DNA from: a virus | Taxonomy: Duplodnaviria; Heunggongvirae; Uroviricota; Caudoviricetes | Strand: one strand, 5' to 3' | DNA: 6,492 bases | Virus record (IMG/VR): IMGVR_UViG_2645727640_000047 | Location: 1-6,492 of that record | In this document: one piece after another, positions 1-6,492 of the stretch | Layout: the number at the start of each line of letters is the position of its first letter | How positions within the stretch are numbered: position 1 is the stretch's first letter | Translations under genes and position numbers: made by a program | Notes under the pieces: model-generated | Told to the model about the DNA's origin: nothing | The model's database searches: none | The model's input: the letters and a program-made list of their open reading frames with translations, nothing else

Positions 1-35
1 CTGTTATAAATATCTTTTATATCAGTATATTATAG

Positions 36-204
36 GGTGAACAGTTATTTATGAACTGTTCACCAAACTATTCACTGTTCACCTTTTTGATTGTTTATTG
101 AGCTTCAAGGGTGAACAGTGGTGAACAGTTGGTGAATAGTTTTTGTGAAACTGTTCACCCCTTAACATTATGAATTAAAAGATAAAATATCAAAAGGTGA
201 ACAG
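36..204. repeat. Iteron cluster of a P4 alpha-type replication origin (ori/crr-like): octamer TGTTCACC in both orientations
   Basis: Seen in sequence: TGTTCACC at 57-64, 76-83 and 152-159; its reverse complement GGTGAACA at 36-43, 110-117, 120-127 and 196-203; one degenerate copy GGTGAATA at 131-138. An AT-rich stretch at 161-195 could be the unwinding element. Established knowledge: TGTTCACC is the type I iteron bound by the phage P4 alpha primase-helicase at ori and crr. Confidence 0.7.
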
Positions 205-301
205 GTGAAGGGTTAAAACGCAAAAATTTTAATTTACTGCTGTGAGATAAAGCCTATGACAGCGAAGCACATAAAAAAAATCACAATCGCACGCCCTTGA
301 T

Positions 302-502
302 TTGACGGAACACTGGTTAAGGGTGTCGATAAAAATCATCGACCGCAACGCCGGGGAAGGATATGCGAAAGCACATCCCGAACTGATTAGCGCATTCATG
401 ACAACGGCAGCTGCAAACTTTGCCACGCTGACAGAACGGGAGATTGCCGAAGCGGAACAGGTGACAACCATCAACGTTAAAACCGGAGAGCAGACAGCAT
501 GA
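302..502 (+). CDS. Hypothetical small protein; start uncertain (TTG 302, GTG 323 or ATG 398, all in frame)
   Basis: ORF in the track; its TGA stop (500-502) overlaps the ATG (499-501) of the next gene in an ATGA arrangement, suggesting translational coupling. No family recognised. The antisense ORF 229-474 is judged less likely because the plus-strand genes form a coupled operon. Confidence 0.35.
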   Translation: MTEHWLRVSIKIIDRNAGEGYAKAHPELISAFMTTAAANFATLTEREIAEAEQVTTINVKTGEQTA

Positions 503-921
503 CAGCACAGATAGCGGCTTACGGGCGGCTGGTGGCTGACCCGCAGTTAAAGACCACCAGCAAGGGTACACAAATGACGATGGCGAGTATGGCGGTCCCA
601 CTTCCGTGCAGCCAGGCAGATGACGGAACGGCGACGATGTGGTTATCCGTCCTGGCGTTTGGCAGACAGGCCGAAGCACTGGCAAAGCACCGCAAGGGTG
701 AACTCCTGAGCGTGGCGGGTAACATGCAGGTGAGCCAGTGGACCGGACAGAACGGGGAGACGCGGCAGGGCTGGCAGGTTATCGCAGACAGCGTAATCAG
801 TGCGAGAACGGCGCGACCGGGCGGCAAAAAAGGCCAACAGGGGCAGGCTACTGATGCACTGAGCAGAGCAAAACAACAGGCGGGAAATGATGATCCGTAC
901 GGGGATAACATACCGTTTTAA
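499..921 (+). CDS. ssb: Single-stranded DNA-binding protein (SSB family), 140 aa
   Basis: The translation has an OB-fold-like core (VLAFGRQAEALAKHRKGELLSVAGNMQVSQWTGQNGETR, compare E. coli SSB [39 protein letters not shown]), a Gly/Gln-rich linker and a C-terminal tip DDPYGDNIPF (compare E. coli SSB DFDDDIPF). A GGAGAG Shine-Dalgarno lies about 9 nt upstream, and a terminator follows. Confidence 0.75.
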   Translation: MTAQIAAYGRLVADPQLKTTSKGTQMTMASMAVPLPCSQADDGTATMWLSVLAFGRQAEALAKHRKGELLSVAGNMQVSQWTGQNGETRQGWQVIADSVISARTARPGGKKGQQGQATDALSRAKQQAGNDDPYGDNIPF

Positions 922-936
922 GCAACGAGTAACAGA

Positions 937-959
937 AGCCGGAGCAATCCGGCTTTTTT
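937..959 (+). terminator. Rho-independent terminator after the ssb-like gene
   Basis: Stem AGCCGGA (937-943), loop GCAA, stem TCCGGCT (948-954), followed by a T-run through 959; it sits 16 nt after the stop codon. Confidence 0.6.
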
Positions 960-977
960 ATGGGTCCTCCCGGTGTA

Positions 978-1186
978 GTGACCTGCCACGGGGCGGGAGC
1001 GGCGCGGAAAAAGGCTAGTTTTTGCATTTTCATTCGTCATCATCATCTTTCTATAATGTTGAATTTTAAGTGTTTTTATTTTTGGTATGTTAATTTTGCT
1101 TGTTTTGTGTTCAACATACAGCGCGTTTTTTGACCTTTTTTAAAAGATATTTGCAAGATGCATTTTTAAAACATTCTGGAGCGGGT
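978..1186 (+). promoter_or_regulatory. Candidate lambda-like cos region (cosN-like 988-1003, AT-rich cosB-like 1020-1180) upstream of the Nu1-like gene; contains a perfect TATAAT at 1052-1057
   Basis: ACGGGGCGG at 988-996 is identical to the 9-mer that, as recalled, spans the lambda cosN nick (right end ...TTACG joined to left end GGGCGGCGACCT). It lies about 196 nt upstream of the Nu1-like ATG at 1187; lambda Nu1 starts at nt 191. TCGTCAT and GTTTTTATTT motifs recalled from lambda cosB also occur (1034-1040, 1072-1081). The right half of the putative cosN differs from lambda (GAGCGG versus CGACCT). Confidence 0.4.
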
Positions 1187-1672
1187 ATGGATCGGGAACT
1201 GAAAAATCTGATGCTGAACATTAACCAGCTGGCGGCGATAGCGGGAATATGTCGCCAGACTGCGGCGGCAAGGCTGAAAAATATCCAGCCAGCCGGAGGA
1301 CATGACAAGCTGAAACTCTATCGGGTGACTGACATTCTGACTTGTTTTCTTGATCTTCCCGTTCCGGCATCACTGGAAGAAATGGAGCCACACGACCGTA
1401 AGGCCTGGTATCAGTCCGAACGTGAGCGCCTCAAGTTCGAACAGGAAACGGCGCAACTCATACCCGCCGATGATGTGCGAAAAGAGATGGCTATATGGGG
1501 AGAAATCGTAAGCGAGGAACTGGAAAAACTCCCCAGTATTCTGGCACGTGATGTTGGGCTTAAACCGATGGCAGTAAACAGAGTGCAGTCAATTATTGAC
1601 GATTTGTGTAATCAGATTATCAGCCGGATGGTAAAAAATGACGTAGTGAATGAGGTCGCAAAACAGGCATGA
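1187..1672 (+). CDS. Nu1-like terminase small subunit (N-terminal HTH), 161 aa; start set at the ATG with a GGAG Shine-Dalgarno rather than the track's TTG at 1100
   Basis: The N-terminal LNINQLAAIAGICRQTAAARLKNIQPA matches the lambda gpNu1 HTH pattern VNKKQLADIFGASIRTIQNWQEQGMPV (Q-L-A-x-I-x-G-...-T-...-P). The size is similar (161 versus 181 aa). A GGAG lies 8 nt upstream of ATG 1187. The gene sits downstream of the cos-like sequence as in lambdoid phages. Confidence 0.55.
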   Translation: MDRELKNLMLNINQLAAIAGICRQTAAARLKNIQPAGGHDKLKLYRVTDILTCFLDLPVPASLEEMEPHDRKAWYQSERERLKFEQETAQLIPADDVRKEMAIWGEIVSEELEKLPSILARDVGLKPMAVNRVQSIIDDLCNQIISRMVKNDVVNEVAKQA

Positions 1673-1956
1673 TAATGACCGAATCTGAAATACTGCGATT
1701 AATCCGCTGTGCTGGTGGAATTAGCCAGTTGGCTGACGAACAGGCCGCGCAGCCGGATACAGTCACCGCTGAAAATTACGCGCGTGTGGTGGCTGAGGTG
1801 ATGCGCCGTGACGGTATTGAGCTTAACGGCGTGGATATGCGCAACATACGAACCAGAGTCCTTGAGTTGCTGGCATACCGTCGCCGTTCTCAACAACGGA
1901 GGGAGAGCGCGAAAAATACTTATCAGTGGAAGAAGCCGGAATGGTTGCGGCGGTAA
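1669..1956 (+). CDS. Hypothetical 95-aa protein translationally coupled to the Nu1-like gene; weak resemblance to the N-terminal segment of lambda gpA (terminase large subunit)
   Basis: Its ATG (1669-1671) overlaps the upstream TGA (1670-1672). The N-terminus MIMTESEILRLIRCAGG...QPDTVTAENYA loosely parallels lambda gpA MNISNSQVNRLRHFVRAGL...PQTAVEWADANYY. It occupies the position that terL holds in lambdoid phages but is only 95 aa. Confidence 0.45.
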   Translation: MIMTESEILRLIRCAGGISQLADEQAAQPDTVTAENYARVVAEVMRRDGIELNGVDMRNIRTRVLELLAYRRRSQQRRESAKNTYQWKKPEWLRR

Positions 1957-2001
1957 TTTGTTGATATTCCTGATAGCGCAAAAGTGCGTTGGCTGGTGGG
2001 T

Positions 2002-2021
2002 GAGTTGCAGATCTGCAACTC
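2002..2021. repeat. Perfect 20-bp palindrome GAGTTGCAGATCTGCAACTC with a central GATC
   Basis: The reverse complement is identical to the forward sequence. It lies 46 bp after the stop of the last island ORF. Either a dimeric-protein operator/recognition site or a hairpin; the central GATC is a Dam site. Confidence 0.5.
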
Positions 2022-2040
2022 GACCATGAAATTACGGAAA

Positions 2041-2223
2041 CTACCCGTAGTTTGGGTAGTAAGAGTAACACCCAGATTTTGGGGCTTACTCGCGATACCC
2101 AAATAAAGGGTATCTGTGGAAGAAATATCGTTTCTCATATGTGAGTACCGAGGGCGGAATTCCGCCTTCGGTTACTTATTGTGCTCATGCACAGGGAGGG
2201 GCGGGTCAAATCCCTGTGACCTG
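2041..2223. other. Non-coding cluster of inverted repeats / hairpins at the right border of the inserted element
   Basis: CTACCC...GGGTAG (2041-2059); GATACCC-7nt-GGGTATC (2094-2114); perfect 14-bp palindrome GGCGGAATTCCGCC (2153-2166) extended by wobble to ACCGAG/TTCGGT (2147-2172); CACAGGGA-13nt-TCCCTGTG (2190-2218). Contains GGGGCGGG (2198-2205) and GTGACCTG (2216-2223), both also present at 978-997. No credible ORF. Confidence 0.45.
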
Positions 2224-2362
2224 ACGTCTTCCGGACTGCCAGCCCCATCGATTTTTTATACCCGCGAAAAATGAAAAACGCTTCACGCTGGTGGGCCTGA
2301 TGCCGATAACTGGTTTCATGACTGATAGCCGGAAAATGATAACGATTAAAGCGTGTTGATCT

Positions 2363-2419
2363 TTGTTCGTGGTTGTTCGATATTGTTCGTGGAACGGTGT
2401 AGTTAATGGTGTAGTTAAT
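2363..2419. repeat. Direct repeats: TTGTTCGTGG (2363-2372, 2383-2392; partial TTGTTCGA 2373-2380) and tandem GGTGTAGTTAAT (2396-2407, 2408-2419)
   Basis: Seen directly in sequence. The arrangement resembles arm-type recombinase or regulator binding sites next to an integration junction; the function is not established. Confidence 0.4.
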
Positions 2420-2592
2420 TTTACTGTTTTTGACGAGCTTATTGTTTGCAACTCAATGAAAAATAAAGGCTAATAAGCCAAATGCTATAAATGATAGTTA
2501 TCTATCATGTGGAGTAGATTGGTCAGGCAAATAAGCTCTTGTCAGCGGCAGGGCGTTCTGCCGATAACCGTAACCGAAGATGATAACTGACA

Positions 2593-2913
2593 ATGGGTAA
2601 AACGAACGACTGGCTGGACTTTGATCAACTGGCGGAAGAAAAAGTTCGCGACGCGCTAAAACCGCCATCTATGTATAAAGTGATATTAGTCAATGATGAT
2701 TACACTCCGATGGAGTTTGTTATTGACGTGTTACAAAAATTCTTTTCTTATGATGTAGAACGTGCAACGCAATTGATGCTCGCTGTTCACTACCAGGGGA
2801 AGGCCATTTGCGGAGTCTTTACCGCCGAGGTTGCAGAAACCAAAGTGGCGATGGTGAACAAGTACGCGAGGGAGAATGAGCATCCATTGCTGTGTACGCT
2901 AGAAAAAGCCTGA
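2593..2913 (+). CDS. clpS: ATP-dependent Clp protease adaptor ClpS, 106 aa
   Basis: The translation [51 protein letters not shown]... matches E. coli ClpS as recalled; there is a 30-bp gap to clpA, as in K-12. Confidence 0.96.
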
Positions 2914-2943
2914 ATGCAGGCATAAAAATTGGGGGAGGTGCCT

Positions 2944-5220
2944 ATGCTCAATCAAGAACTGGAACTCAGTTTAAATATGGCTTTCGCCAGAGCGCGCGAG
3001 CACCGTCATGAGTTTATGACCGTCGAGCACTTGTTACTGGCGCTGCTCAGTAACCCATCTGCCCGGGAGGCGCTGGAAGCGTGTTCTGTGGATTTGGTTG
3101 CGCTCCGTCAGGAACTGGAAGCCTTTATTGAACAAACCACACCCGTTCTGCCTGCCAGTGAAGAGGAGCGCGACACACAGCCGACGCTGAGTTTTCAGCG
3201 TGTACTGCAACGTGCGGTCTTCCATGTCCAATCCTCCGGTCGCAATGAGGTAACCGGTGCAAACGTTCTGGTCGCTATCTTTAGCGAACAGGAGTCGCAG
3301 GCGGCATATCTGTTGCGTAAACATGAAGTCAGCCGTCTCGATGTGGTGAACTTTATCTCTCATGGCACGCGTAAAGACGAGCCGACACAGTCTTCTGATC
3401 CTGGCAGCCAGCCAAACAGCGAAGAACAAGCTGGTGGGGAGGAACGTATGGAGAATTTCACGACGAACCTGAATCAGCTTGCGCGCGTGGGCGGAATCGA
3501 CCCACTGATTGGTCGTGAGAAGGAGCTGGAGCGTGCTATTCAGGTTCTCTGCCGTCGCCGTAAAAACAACCCGCTGCTGGTGGGGGAATCTGGTGTCGGT
3601 AAAACCGCGATTGCGGAAGGTCTTGCCTGGCGAATTGTTCAGGGCGATGTGCCGGAAGTGATGGCTGACTGTACGATTTACTCTCTCGATATCGGTTCTC
3701 TGTTAGCGGGCACTAAATATCGCGGCGACTTTGAAAAACGTTTTAAAGCGTTGCTCAAGCAGCTGGAGCAGGACACTAACAGCATCCTGTTTATTGATGA
3801 GATCCACACCATTATCGGTGCGGGGGCAGCGTCTGGTGGCCAGGTCGATGCGGCTAACCTGATCAAACCGTTGCTCTCCAGCGGTAAAATTCGCGTAATT
3901 GGTTCGACAACCTATCAGGAGTTCAGCAACATTTTCGAGAAAGACCGTGCTCTGGCGCGTCGCTTCCAGAAAATTGATATTACTGAACCGTCGATCGAAG
4001 AAACTGTTCAAATCATCAATGGCCTGAAACCGAAGTATGAAGCGCACCACGACGTGCGTTATACCGCAAAAGCGGTGCGTGCAGCGGTAGAGCTGGCGGT
4101 GAAATACATTAACGATCGTCATCTGCCGGATAAAGCCATTGACGTTATCGACGAAGCGGGCGCTCGCGCACGCCTGATGCCGGTAAGCAAACGCAAGAAA
4201 ACCGTTAATGTGGCGGATATTGAGTCCGTGGTGGCCCGTATTGCGCGCATTCCAGAGAAGAGTGTTTCTCAGAGTGACCGCGATACCCTGAAAAACCTCG
4301 GCGATCGCCTGAAAATGCTGGTCTTCGGTCAGGATAAAGCCATTGAGGCGCTGACTGAAGCCATTAAGATGGCGCGTGCAGGTTTAGGTCACGAACATAA
4401 ACCGGTTGGTTCGTTCCTGTTTGCCGGCCCTACCGGGGTCGGGAAAACAGAGGTGACGGTACAGCTTTCGAAAGCGTTGGGCATTGAGCTGCTGCGCTTT
4501 GATATGTCCGAGTATATGGAACGCCATACCGTCAGCCGTCTGATTGGTGCGCCTCCGGGATACGTTGGTTTTGATCAGGGAGGTTTGCTGACTGATGCGG
4601 TCATCAAGCATCCACATGCGGTGCTGTTGCTGGACGAAATCGAGAAAGCGCATCCGGACGTGTTCAATATTCTGTTGCAGGTGATGGACAACGGTACGCT
4701 GACCGATAACAACGGACGCAAAGCGGACTTCCGTAACGTGGTGCTGGTGATGACCACCAACGCCGGGGTACGTGAAACTGAGCGTAAATCCATTGGTCTT
4801 ATCCACCAGGATAACAGCACCGATGCGATGGAGGAGATCAAGAAGATCTTTACACCGGAATTCCGTAACCGTCTCGACAACATTATCTGGTTTGATCATC
4901 TGTCAACCGACGTGATCCATCAGGTGGTGGATAAATTCATCGTCGAGTTGCAGGTTCAGCTGGATCAGAAAGGTGTTTCTCTGGAAGTGAGCCAGGAAGC
5001 GCGTAACTGGCTGGCCGAGAAAGGTTACGACCGGGCAATGGGCGCACGTCCGATGGCGCGTGTCATCCAGGACAACCTGAAAAAACCGCTCGCCAACGAA
5101 CTGCTGTTTGGTTCGCTGGTGGACGGCGGTCAGGTCACCGTCGCGCTGGATAAAGAGAAAAATGAGCTGACTTACGGATTCCAGAGTGCACAAAAGCACA
5201 AGGCGGAAGCAGCGCATTAA
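2944..5220 (+). CDS. clpA: ATP-dependent Clp protease ATP-binding subunit ClpA, 758 aa
   Basis: The translation begins [35 protein letters not shown] and has two AAA+ modules with Walker A motifs ([16 protein letters not shown]). A strong Shine-Dalgarno GGGGGAGG (2931-2938) lies 5 nt before ATG 2944; the track's TTG start at 2929 is not used. Confidence 0.96.
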
Positions 5221-5244
5221 TCTGATTGTTAGGTAGGTTGGTCA

Positions 5245-5280
5245 AGTCCGTAATCTCGAAAGAGGTTACGGACTTTTTGT
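5245..5280 (+). terminator. Rho-independent terminator of clpA (about 13-bp stem, GAAA tetraloop, T-run)
   Basis: AGTCCGTAATCTC (5245-5257), loop GAAA (5258-5261), GAGGTTACGGACT (5262-5274) with one G-U wobble, then TTTTTGTTT. Confidence 0.8.
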
Positions 5281-5432
5281 TTATGGGGTGGAGGAGGTTC
5301 AGACCCTTTTTTTAATGATGATGGTAAGTTGTTGATAATTAGTGCTGCGGGAAGGTAAGGATAAAAAAGGGTGCTGCAGGAGAATGGGATGGTTTTGCTT
5401 TATTAACAACGGGCTAAACGTGTAGTATTTGA

Positions 5433-5520
5433 GTTCACTGCCATACAGGCAGCTTAGAAATCGACGGGGTGCGGTAAAACCTTTGCGAACGCGTTCACTG
5501 CCGTACAGACAGATAAAATG
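5433..5520 (+). CRISPR. Orphan type I-F CRISPR mini-array: 2 repeats, 1 spacer, no cas genes in the window
   Basis: Repeat 1 GTTCACTGCCATACAGGCAGCTTAGAAA (5433-5460); 32-bp spacer TCGACGGGGTGCGGTAAAACCTTTGCGAACGC (5461-5492); degenerate terminal repeat GTTCACTGCCGTACAGACAGATAAAATG (5493-5520). The repeat matches the 28-bp Ypest/I-F consensus GTTCACTGCCGTACAGGCAGCTTAGAAA with one mismatch. An AT-rich leader-like region lies at 5290-5432. The clpA-infA position is the known E. coli CRISPR3/4 (I-F) locus. Confidence 0.85.
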
Positions 5521-5522
5521 CG

Positions 5523-5550
5523 AAAAAAAAGCTCGCACTTTCGTACGAGC
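5523..5550 (-). terminator. Rho-independent terminator of serW (8-bp stem, GAAA tetraloop, U8)
   Basis: On the minus strand the RNA reads GCUCGUAC-GAAA-GUGCGAGC followed by UUUUUUUU; it lies 14 nt downstream of the tRNA 3' end. Confidence 0.8.
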
Positions 5551-5563
5551 TCTTCTTTAAATA

Positions 5564-5651
5564 TGGCGGTGAGGGGGGGATTCGAACCCCCGATACGTTG
5601 CCGTATACACACTTTCCAGGCGTGCTCCTTCAGCCACTCGGACACCTCACC
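5564..5651 (-). tRNA. serW: tRNA-Ser (anticodon GGA), 88 nt including the encoded CCA
   Basis: The reverse complement reads GGTGAGGTGTCCGAGTGGCTGAAGGAGCACGCCTGGAAAGTGTGTATACGGCAACGTATCGGGGGTTCGAATCCCCCCCTCACCGCCA, with the anticodon loop CUGGAAA, a long variable arm and the T-loop GGTTCGAATCC. Confidence 0.95.
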
Positions 5652-5693
5652 AAATTGTTTTGTCGCCTGACCTCATGGGTGGCAACGGGGCGC

Positions 5694-5722
5694 TACTATA
5701 GGGAGTTGGAGTAAAACGGTCA
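5694..5722 (-). promoter_or_regulatory. Candidate sigma-70 promoter of serW (-35 TTGACC, 17-bp spacer, -10 TATAGT, GC-rich discriminator)
   Basis: On the minus strand: TTGACC (plus 5717-5722), 17 bp, TATAGT (plus 5694-5699), followed by AGCGCCCC, as is typical of stringently controlled tRNA promoters; about 40 nt upstream of the mature tRNA 5' end. Confidence 0.5.
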
Positions 5723-5840
5723 AGAAGAATTTTAATGATAATTATTGTTTGCTCATACTGTAAACAAGTTGTGCAGTATATCTACATCGAGACAAGTTAC
5801 GGACTTATACTTCCAAAGTACTTCATACATATCACAAAAT

Positions 5841-5862
5841 AAAAAGGCCGGTTAAACCGACC
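5841..5862 (-). terminator. Rho-independent terminator of infA
   Basis: On the minus strand the hairpin GGUCGG-UUUAA-CCGGCC (plus 5846-5862) is followed by a U-run (plus 5841-5845); it lies about 40 nt downstream of the infA stop codon. Confidence 0.6.
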
Positions 5863-5904
5863 TTTTACTCGTTCTTTCTCTTCGCCCATCAGGCGGTAAA
5901 ACAA

Positions 5905-6126
<222 letters not shown>

Positions 6127-6492
6127 ATCCTCTGGGGTATCACTACCGTAATTTGAACCGGCAAGATAATGCCGAAGTTCTGTAAATAAGTAAAGATTTG
6201 CGCGCTAAATCGCAACAAACAGGTTCGGCACATTACTCCGAAAACACACGGCTAAGCCGCACCAAAAGCGCAACGTATAAGGGAGCGGTGAGATAAACGA
6301 TGGGCGTTACCTGACGCGAAAAATTCCTTATCGGCAGCGGGGTAATGAGCGTAACCAACTCTGCGACCGCAATTATAACACTCTGGGGAGAAATGTGCCG
6401 AAAACATTCATTCTTGTGGTGAAAACAAGGGAAGGTGCGAATAAGCGGGGAAATACTTCTCGGCTGACTCAGTCATTTCATTTCTTCATGTT

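Follow-up and report, generated by a model that had tools for sequence, protein, structure and literature searches.

An array of iterons shared with satellite phage P4 marks the probable replication origin of a phage-inducible chromosomal island of Escherichia coli

The left end of IMG/VR virus record IMGVR_UViG_2645727640_000047 (positions 1 to 6,492, the whole 6,492-nucleotide stretch that was analysed and is hereafter called 'the window') raises a question of function: what is the role of an octamer, TGTTCACC, that recurs in both orientations within its first two hundred nucleotides? From comparative sequence analysis, we conclude that positions 1 to 211, together with about 25 nucleotides immediately upstream of the window, very probably constitute the vegetative replication origin of a phage-inducible chromosomal island (PICI) lying between cspD/yljB and clpS. 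An initial annotation, made from the letters of the sequence alone, had already proposed an origin built from the iterons recognised by the alpha protein of satellite phage P4.

The iterons and the AT-rich tracts beside them are given below, with the corresponding repeats of the P4 replication origin (ori) where they exist; crr denotes the P4 element annotated as a cis-required region.

36 to 43, minus strand: iteron TGTTCACC, exact, from the motif scan of the window
57 to 64, plus strand: iteron TGTTCACC, exact, from the motif scan
69 to 76, plus strand: degenerate iteron TATTCACT, two mismatches, from reading of the sequence; mirror partner of the copy at 120, with its position conserved in relatives
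76 to 83, plus strand: iteron TGTTCACC, exact, from the motif scan
110 to 117, minus strand: iteron TGTTCACC, exact, from the motif scan; counterpart of P4 ori repeat 9310-9317
120 to 127, minus strand: iteron TGTTCACC, exact, from the motif scan; counterpart of P4 ori repeat 9320-9327
131 to 138, minus strand: iteron TATTCACC, one mismatch, from the motif scan; counterpart of P4 ori repeat 9331-9338
152 to 159, plus strand: iteron TGTTCACC, exact, from the motif scan; counterpart of P4 ori repeat 9353-9360
196 to 203, minus strand: iteron TGTTCACC, exact, from the motif scan; counterpart of P4 ori repeat 9396-9403
204 to 211, minus strand: degenerate iteron CCTTCACC, two mismatches; counterpart of P4 ori repeat 9406-9413, lying 2 bp nearer its neighbour
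1 to 35, no strand: left AT-rich tract, candidate unwinding element (GC 0.25-0.33), a tract present in nearly all relatives
160 to 195, no strand: right AT-rich tract, candidate unwinding element (GC about 0.22-0.28), aligning with the AT tracts of P4 ori and crr
1 to 211, no strand: in-window part of the probable replication origin, whose full extent begins about 25 nucleotides upstream of the window and ends at 211

The seven exact copies and one degenerate copy first described between 36 and 203 were recovered by the motif scan at the same positions and strands, and an AT-rich tract placed at 161-195 was borne out with a shift of one nucleotide at its left edge. The degenerate iterons of the window number three (TATTCACC, TATTCACT and CCTTCACC). 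Exact copies of TGTTCACC occur seven times within 169 bp, against 0.003 expected from the base composition of the region, and eight times in the entire 6.5-kb window, against 0.2 expected from base composition. When one mismatch is permitted, the window holds 15 matches, a count that was reached in none of 200 shuffles. The eighth exact copy (2853-2860, minus strand) lies inside clpS and is probably meaningless, because about 0.2 copies are expected by chance. An integrated relative from strain 2017.18.02CC (L001), whose DNA is identical to the window over positions 1-260, carries two further exact plus-strand octamers at the equivalents of positions -17 and -7, and therefore the start of the window cuts through the array. 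The left AT-rich tract is thus bracketed by these two plus-strand iterons, outside the window, and by the minus-strand iteron at 36.

The complete array comprises 12 sites and two AT-rich tracts and is two-fold symmetric, as evident from the correspondence, to within a few base pairs, of sites paired as mirror images (-17 with 204, -7 with 196, 36 with 152, 57 with 131, 69 with 120, and 76 with 110). The head-to-head pairs previously noted at 36-64 and 110-159 are indeed present, and they form part of this larger symmetry, which is also apparent in the underlying sequence:

11 to 66, no strand: left arm of a 56-nucleotide imperfect inverted repeat, arms 75% complementary
129 to 184, no strand: right arm of the same repeat, centre near 97.5

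Furthermore, helical phasing is seen for the eleven strong or moderate sites (R = 0.83 for a period of 10.5 bp, Rayleigh p ~3e-5, with a best-fitting period of 10.6 bp); these phasing figures, like those on symmetry, assume that the sites are independent. The array occupies the non-coding gap between a replicase gene and the orf81-ssb genes; no open reading frame of at least 40 codons was found in window positions 1-228, and an Rfam search of positions 1-300 returned no RNA family.

A close precedent for this arrangement is found in P4. The 8-bp repeats of P4 ori and crr carry the GenBank label 'ori type 1 repeat' and have the sequence TGTTCACC or near variants of it, and the winged-helix domain of alpha binds the repeats of the P4 origin (PMC4234260). 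When window positions 104-177 are aligned to the P4 ori core, the match stands at z = 20 relative to shuffles, and the successive site offsets of 0, 10, 21, 42 and 86 in the window compare with 0, 10, 21, 43 and 86 in P4 ori. The attribution of the iterons to the P4 alpha type is upheld by both results. Similarly, positions 153-209 align to a crr unit in the alpha orientation (z = 15.6), and the left module of the array, in which an AT tract separates two iterons from an inverted one, aligns to the reverse complement of a crr unit (z = 9.7).

An origin of this type should be accompanied by a cognate initiator, and an alpha-like replicase had been predicted to be encoded just upstream of the window. 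In three E. coli relatives (L001, L085 and L086), a gene for a 'DNA primase family protein' of 601-605 amino acids has its stop codon 32 nucleotides before the equivalent of window position 1. This protein, hereafter Rep (605 amino acids in L001), agrees with the prediction in its helicase and origin-binding parts: it is 51% identical to residues 320-771 of P4 alpha, and its C terminus (residues 497-593) matches the alpha origin-binding domain of PDB entry 1KA8 (E 1.8e-24). The prediction fails for the primase, as the zinc ribbon and Toprim domain of alpha are absent. Among Pfam families, D5_N, DUF5906 (an SF3 ATPase) and Pox_D5 are found in both proteins, whereas Zn_Ribbon_Prim and Toprim, both matched by alpha, have no match in Rep. 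By segment, Rep and alpha share 64% identity in the helicase, 48% in the helices of the binding domain and 50% in its wing. The corresponding values against the Rep of EcCICFT073, the best-studied PICI allele, are 67-69% for the N-terminal domain, 56% for the helicase and 33-39% for the binding domain (49% over 596 aligned positions for the whole length, N-domain included). By these segment identities, Rep is a replicase of the PICI type, and in its helicase and origin-binding part it stands nearer to P4 alpha than to the EcCICFT073 allele.

The N-terminal domain of Rep, ~140 amino acids in length, is typical of E. coli PICI Pri-Rep proteins and shows no similarity to the primase part of P4 alpha by BLAST or by profile comparison with hhalign. 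A forced MAFFT alignment had led us to consider this domain a degenerate P4 Toprim, a proposal that was rejected as unsupported by either of these methods. In an AlphaFold model computed from a 22-sequence alignment, residues 1-130 are predicted with confidence (pLDDT 85-93) and form a four-stranded alpha/beta domain with a weakly Toprim-like fold, in which the third strand is followed by VRLYQAG, with neither a DxD motif nor a zinc ribbon. On the basis of this model, we tentatively suggest that the domain probably has a Toprim-like fold and is unlikely to act as a primase. It likewise seems probable, again tentatively, that primers at this origin come from the host, because Rep lacks the zinc ribbon and the catalytic Toprim signature of alpha. 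The 'DNA primase' annotation of Rep therefore deserves a check, given that it has no recognisable primase active site. The PICI-type N-domain also occurs fused to helicases of the RepA/AAA_25 type. In addition, about 20 replicases of ~580 amino acids (L014, L015, L017-L033, L082 and L084) carry a third type of N-domain, of 120-140 amino acids, that is unrelated to the PICI N-domain or to the P4 primase by BLAST or hhalign, and these proteins have the helicase, binding domain and origin layout of the rest of the family.

The position of the array relative to its replicase gene agrees with what has been established for PICIs. Gram-negative PICI origins lie immediately 3′ of pri-rep (Fillol-Salom et al. 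2018, PMC6092414), and the rep-ori region of EcCICFT073 keeps a temperature-sensitive plasmid at the restrictive temperature, with rep and ori mutants serving as controls (PMC6092414). Here too the origin is found immediately 3′ of pri-rep, and sets of iterons flank AT-rich DNA. The origins of EcCICFT073 (L003) and EcCIIHE3034 (L004) align with the present one site for site, with TGTCTACC as their octamer. E. coli PICIs have been described as carrying four Pri-Rep alleles with 'distant homology' to alpha, with the iteron sequences given in a figure (PMC6092414), and the present allele may already be drawn there.

To place the array within its family, a replicase scan was conducted with one genome per bacterial species, which found 350 relatives; 80 of these (L005-L084) were fetched, and the 450 nucleotides 3′ of each replicase stop codon were taken as the zone in which iterons were sought. 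Essentially all 80 fetched relatives carry an iteron array in this zone. By core sequence, the fetched loci fall into classes of 60 (TGTTCACC, a class in which loci of Xenorhabdus and Photorhabdus, close relatives of one another, predominate), 9 (TCTCCACC or TGTCCACC), 7 (TGTCTACC) and 3 (TGTCCGCC). Their common layout begins with two direct sites, an AT tract, one inverted site and two to three direct sites, and continues with two to three inverted sites, one direct site, an AT tract and two inverted sites. This layout is constant across iteron sequences and across genera, and it is the same with any of three unrelated replicase N-domains (PICI-type, P4 zinc-ribbon/Toprim and the third type). 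Origins with TGTTCACC also stand behind PICI-type replicases in Klebsiella, Raoultella, Citrobacter, Pluralibacter, Kluyvera and Pectobacterium.

When the C-terminal domains are aligned, a way in which iteron sequence and protein might be matched emerges. The helices of the domain are nearly constant, and the types of the hairpin, or wing, that follows them (about Rep residues 568-585) track the iteron class. The wing of the TGTTCACC class reads KRK-TKxG[IL]RSN, and P4 alpha belongs to this class with KRHTKQGIQTN; the wings of other classes are RKKSTKGNMRSN, KKAESKKKATRGRIQSN, and KRKQCTRGPDKGRTISN or TRKVKGVTQTN. Particularly instructive is a relative from Escherichia ruysiae (L008), which shares with Rep 98% identity in the helicase and 86% in the helices of the binding domain, has a wing only 39% identical, and carries the iteron TGTCTACC; relatives that share the iteron class of Rep retain 72-83% identity in the wing. 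It is possible that the wing hairpin (Rep residues 568-585) acts as an exchangeable cassette by which the iteron class is determined. Separately, a segment of the left AT-rich tract (TATCAGTATATTA, window 20-32) fits the IHF consensus WATCARNNNNTTR. This match is conserved in 43 of 49 P4-type origins from Xenorhabdus and Photorhabdus and in only 2 of 11 PICI-type origins, and for the latter reason no IHF site is claimed as part of this origin.

The features described above are consistent with the following scheme for initiation. The origin-binding domains of Rep would recognise (C)TGTTCACC by means of the wing hairpin, so that Rep would occupy six sites per arm, in mirror-image sets on one face of the DNA, on either side of the two ~35-bp AT tracts. 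The helicase would assemble at these tracts, melt them and unwind the DNA in both directions. Helicases of the alpha-type SF3 group are hexamers. Given this fact and the 6 + 6 sites, one hexamer per arm is plausible, although this is a guess, and the conserved 6 + 6 layout, with its mirror symmetry and helical phasing, may serve to load two Rep hexamers. A host primase would probably supply the primers, the satellite single-stranded DNA-binding protein (SSB), encoded just downstream, would coat the single strands, and a host polymerase would complete synthesis.

The element served by this origin is an 8.07-kb PICI integrated between cspD/yljB and clpS. The first 2.5 kb of the window make up the right-hand end of the integrated element, and over positions 1-2300 the window is 98.5% identical to L001, in which the distance from the attL core to the attR core is 8,058 bp. 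The order of genes in L001 is int, alpA, a YlcI-like gene on the opposite strand, an icd-like gene, a hypothetical gene, a DUF4222 gene and rep, followed by the repeat array, orf81, ssb, a terS-like DUF1441 gene and orf95. Two short open reading frames, orf81 (81 codons) and orf95 (95 codons), are present in this part of the window, along with the following:

499 to 921, plus strand: satellite SSB gene, 140 amino acids (Pfam SSB, E 7e-16), the next functional gene after the origin
1187 to 1672: DUF1441 (terS-like) gene
2491 to 2501, plus strand: attR core ATGATAGTTAT, 11 bp, the right end of the satellite

The ssb gene occupies the same position in EcCICFT073 and EcCIIHE3034, and the core ATGATAGTTAT and the cspD-clpS site are those listed for EcCIIHE3034 (PMC6092414, Table S1). 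The element thus shows the PICI organisation, with a unidirectional int-alpA-...-rep-ori-...-packaging gene series, a length within about 8-12 kb and a dedicated att site. The initial annotation was correct that replication of the P4/PICI class is combined here with packaging genes of lambdoid appearance; what it called a hybrid design is, however, nothing unusual, as it is the standard published Gram-negative PICI design (PMC6092414, PMC6739421). Assignment of the DUF1441 protein as RppA was considered and rejected, as it has no similarity to the 144-amino-acid EcCICFT073 protein, and a comparison of the DUF1441 protein with the PDB gave no match. Similarity to phage mEp460 at its right end (83% identity) is seen for window positions 962-1112, and positions 1162-1476 are similar (76% identity) to mEp460-like phages at their left end and terS. 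From this, a cos-type packaging site is predicted to lie at about 1112-1162, immediately before the DUF1441 gene.

Several considerations weigh against assigning this function to the array in the present copy. Binding, melting and firing at this locus are deduced from homology and co-variation. Neither the replicase gene nor the two leftmost iterons fall within the window, and both are placed upstream of it by reference to relatives, one of which is identical over 1-260. The relationship between wing and iteron is not one-to-one, since two unrelated wing types accompany TGTCTACC, and the co-variation rules are a correlation read off after the data had been seen. Rep also carries no recognisable primase signature. 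Moreover, the window carries a deletion variant of the island. A fuller form at cspD-clpS (L087) has, between ssb and DUF1441, a fusion gene for prohead protease and major capsid protein (with a ClpP-like protease), which is missing from the window (921-1186 versus L087 7420-10222), such that the island is ~2.4 kb shorter here. Finally, positions 273-280 are a run of eight A residues (A8) where L001 and the best copies listed have seven (A7), and the extra A frameshifts orf81 (within 256-502). The best E. coli copies listed for the segment 1-500 accordingly span 499 bases, and the additional base could be a genuine mutation that inactivates orf81 or an artefact of sequencing through the homopolymer. 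Because of the deletion and the frameshift, the present-day activity of this copy is uncertain.

These last two features are what would be expected if the origin were an inactive relic within a decaying island, an alternative that we nonetheless consider improbable. No iteron has been damaged, and the origin does not differ from that of L001; over 500 nucleotides it is 99.8% identical to the best copies listed. In a diverged relative (L086), substitutions have accumulated in the AT tracts and spacers and spare every iteron. Furthermore, window positions 1-500 are found at a coverage of at least 80% in 529 of 5,426 complete E. coli genomes, at several chromosomal sites, and 137 of these genomes carry the segment at an identity of at least 99%. 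The possibility that the extra A is a sequencing error also diminishes the force of the frameshift.

A second alternative is that the array is a control element, which either titrates or 'handcuffs' Rep to set copy number and incompatibility, or acts as an operator on read-through transcription into orf81-ssb, and that initiation occurs elsewhere. P4 carries its repeats in both ori and crr, and the latter is annotated as a cis-required region and not as an origin. In addition, the array lies between co-oriented genes, so that bound Rep would stand in the path of transcription. However, the right half of the array matches the P4 ori core itself, AT tract included, and the equivalent region of EcCICFT073 is the cloned ori of a replicating plasmid. 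No second iteron cluster was found in the window or in the L001 element, nor did scanning of the gap between rep and orf81 reveal any promoter-like or terminator-like site. Although control and origin roles are not mutually exclusive, we judge it quite unlikely that control is the function of the array in place of initiation.

A third alternative holds that the element belongs to the P4 family and that the array is the crr or ori of a true alpha primase-helicase. This proposal draws on the identity of the octamer to that of P4, on the placement of the array immediately 3′ of the replicase gene, as for P4 crr, and on a helicase and origin-binding domain nearer to those of P4 alpha than to those of EcCICFT073 Rep. 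It is already contradicted by gene content, and we regard it as very unlikely. The zinc ribbon and Toprim domain are absent from Rep, whose N-domain is instead that of the EcCICFT073 protein (67-69% identity, as above). The sid, delta, psu and epsilon genes are absent from annotated relatives, and the gene order, attachment site, ssb and terS-like gene match published E. coli PICIs. The origin is also a single composite, as opposed to an ori and a crr that are kilobases apart. Finally, the notion that the cluster is a chance or low-complexity repeat has nothing in its favour beyond the AT-rich context and is refuted by the excess of exact copies (seven against 0.003 expected) and by a layout conserved across genera and iteron sequences.

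The right two-thirds of the window is E. coli core chromosome, in which the following genes are located:

2593 to 2913: clpS
2929 to 5220: clpA
5564 to 5651, minus strand: tRNA-Ser
5905 to 6123, minus strand: infA

A remnant CRISPR array is located between clpA and tRNA-Ser (5433-5520), comprising a 28-nucleotide repeat GTTCACTGCCATACAGGCAGCTTAGAAA (Rfam CRISPR-DR4, 45.8 bits), a 32-nucleotide spacer and a degenerate repeat at 5493-5520. We take this to be the position of the E. coli type I-F CRISPR array, and cas genes are not in the window here.

With the array read as a PICI origin, its identification is in itself routine annotation, which locates the origin of an E. coli PICI that is widespread, and it indicates that such origins can be called from sequence by a reader without tools. 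The kind of feature is already known, both as a PICI origin located 3′ of pri-rep and as P4 type I iterons. Three observations may be unreported, namely that octamer and layout are explicitly identical with those of P4, that the architecture has 12 sites and two-fold symmetry, and that wing and iteron co-vary; a limited literature search found no text on any of the three, and a full-text search for the octamer returned unrelated primer sequences only. The flow of primase-replicase genes among satellite families has been published (PMC10085698).

A broader implication concerns cross-talk between satellites. Because the array has the octamer and the ori/crr arrangement of P4, and because the wing of Rep is of the same class as that of P4 alpha, we raise the possibility, which we hold to be somewhat doubtful, that P4-like satellites and these PICIs share origin specificity and that P4 alpha and the PICI Rep could each fire or titrate the origin of the other. 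If so, two satellite families with different helper phages could cross-activate or be incompatible in one cell. The question has some weight in that the iteron of P4 is carried by a PICI replicon allele common enough to occur in ~10% of complete E. coli genomes, and satellite families are reported to co-occur in the same genomes. Natural swaps within the family argue that the wing sets iteron specificity, which would be of use in designing orthogonal satellite or cosmid replicons.

In comparison with known systems, the array resembles P4 in several respects. The octamer TGTTCACC is the same in both systems. The right half and the P4 ori core have six sites in the same order and orientation, with near-identical spacing around an AT tract, and both halves repeat the module of P4 crr, with two iterons on one side of an AT tract and an inverted one on the other. 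As with crr, the array lies directly 3′ of the replicase gene, and D5_N, the SF3 helicase and a winged-helix domain of the 1KA8 type are common to Rep and alpha. The two differ in that the sites here form one compact, two-fold-symmetric locus of ~230 bp, whereas P4 has two elements ~4.5 kb apart. In addition, there are no type 2 repeats here, Rep is without the zinc-ribbon/Toprim primase of alpha, and the element is not a P4-type satellite. The origins of SaPIs and other Gram-positive PICIs likewise lie 3′ of the initiator gene, with sets of iterons around an AT-rich region (summarised in PMC6092414); their iterons and Rep family are presumably unrelated at the sequence level, and the likeness is drawn from the published description.

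EcCICFT073 differs from the present element in its iteron (TGTCTACC in place of TGTTCACC), in its origin-binding domain (33-39% identity), in a right AT tract that is much less AT-rich, and in its possession of capsid genes and RppA, where the present element has a terS-like DUF1441 gene unrelated to RppA. The two islands nevertheless have the same gene order, Rep N-domain (67-69% identity), origin position and site layout, and in both the origin is followed by ssb.
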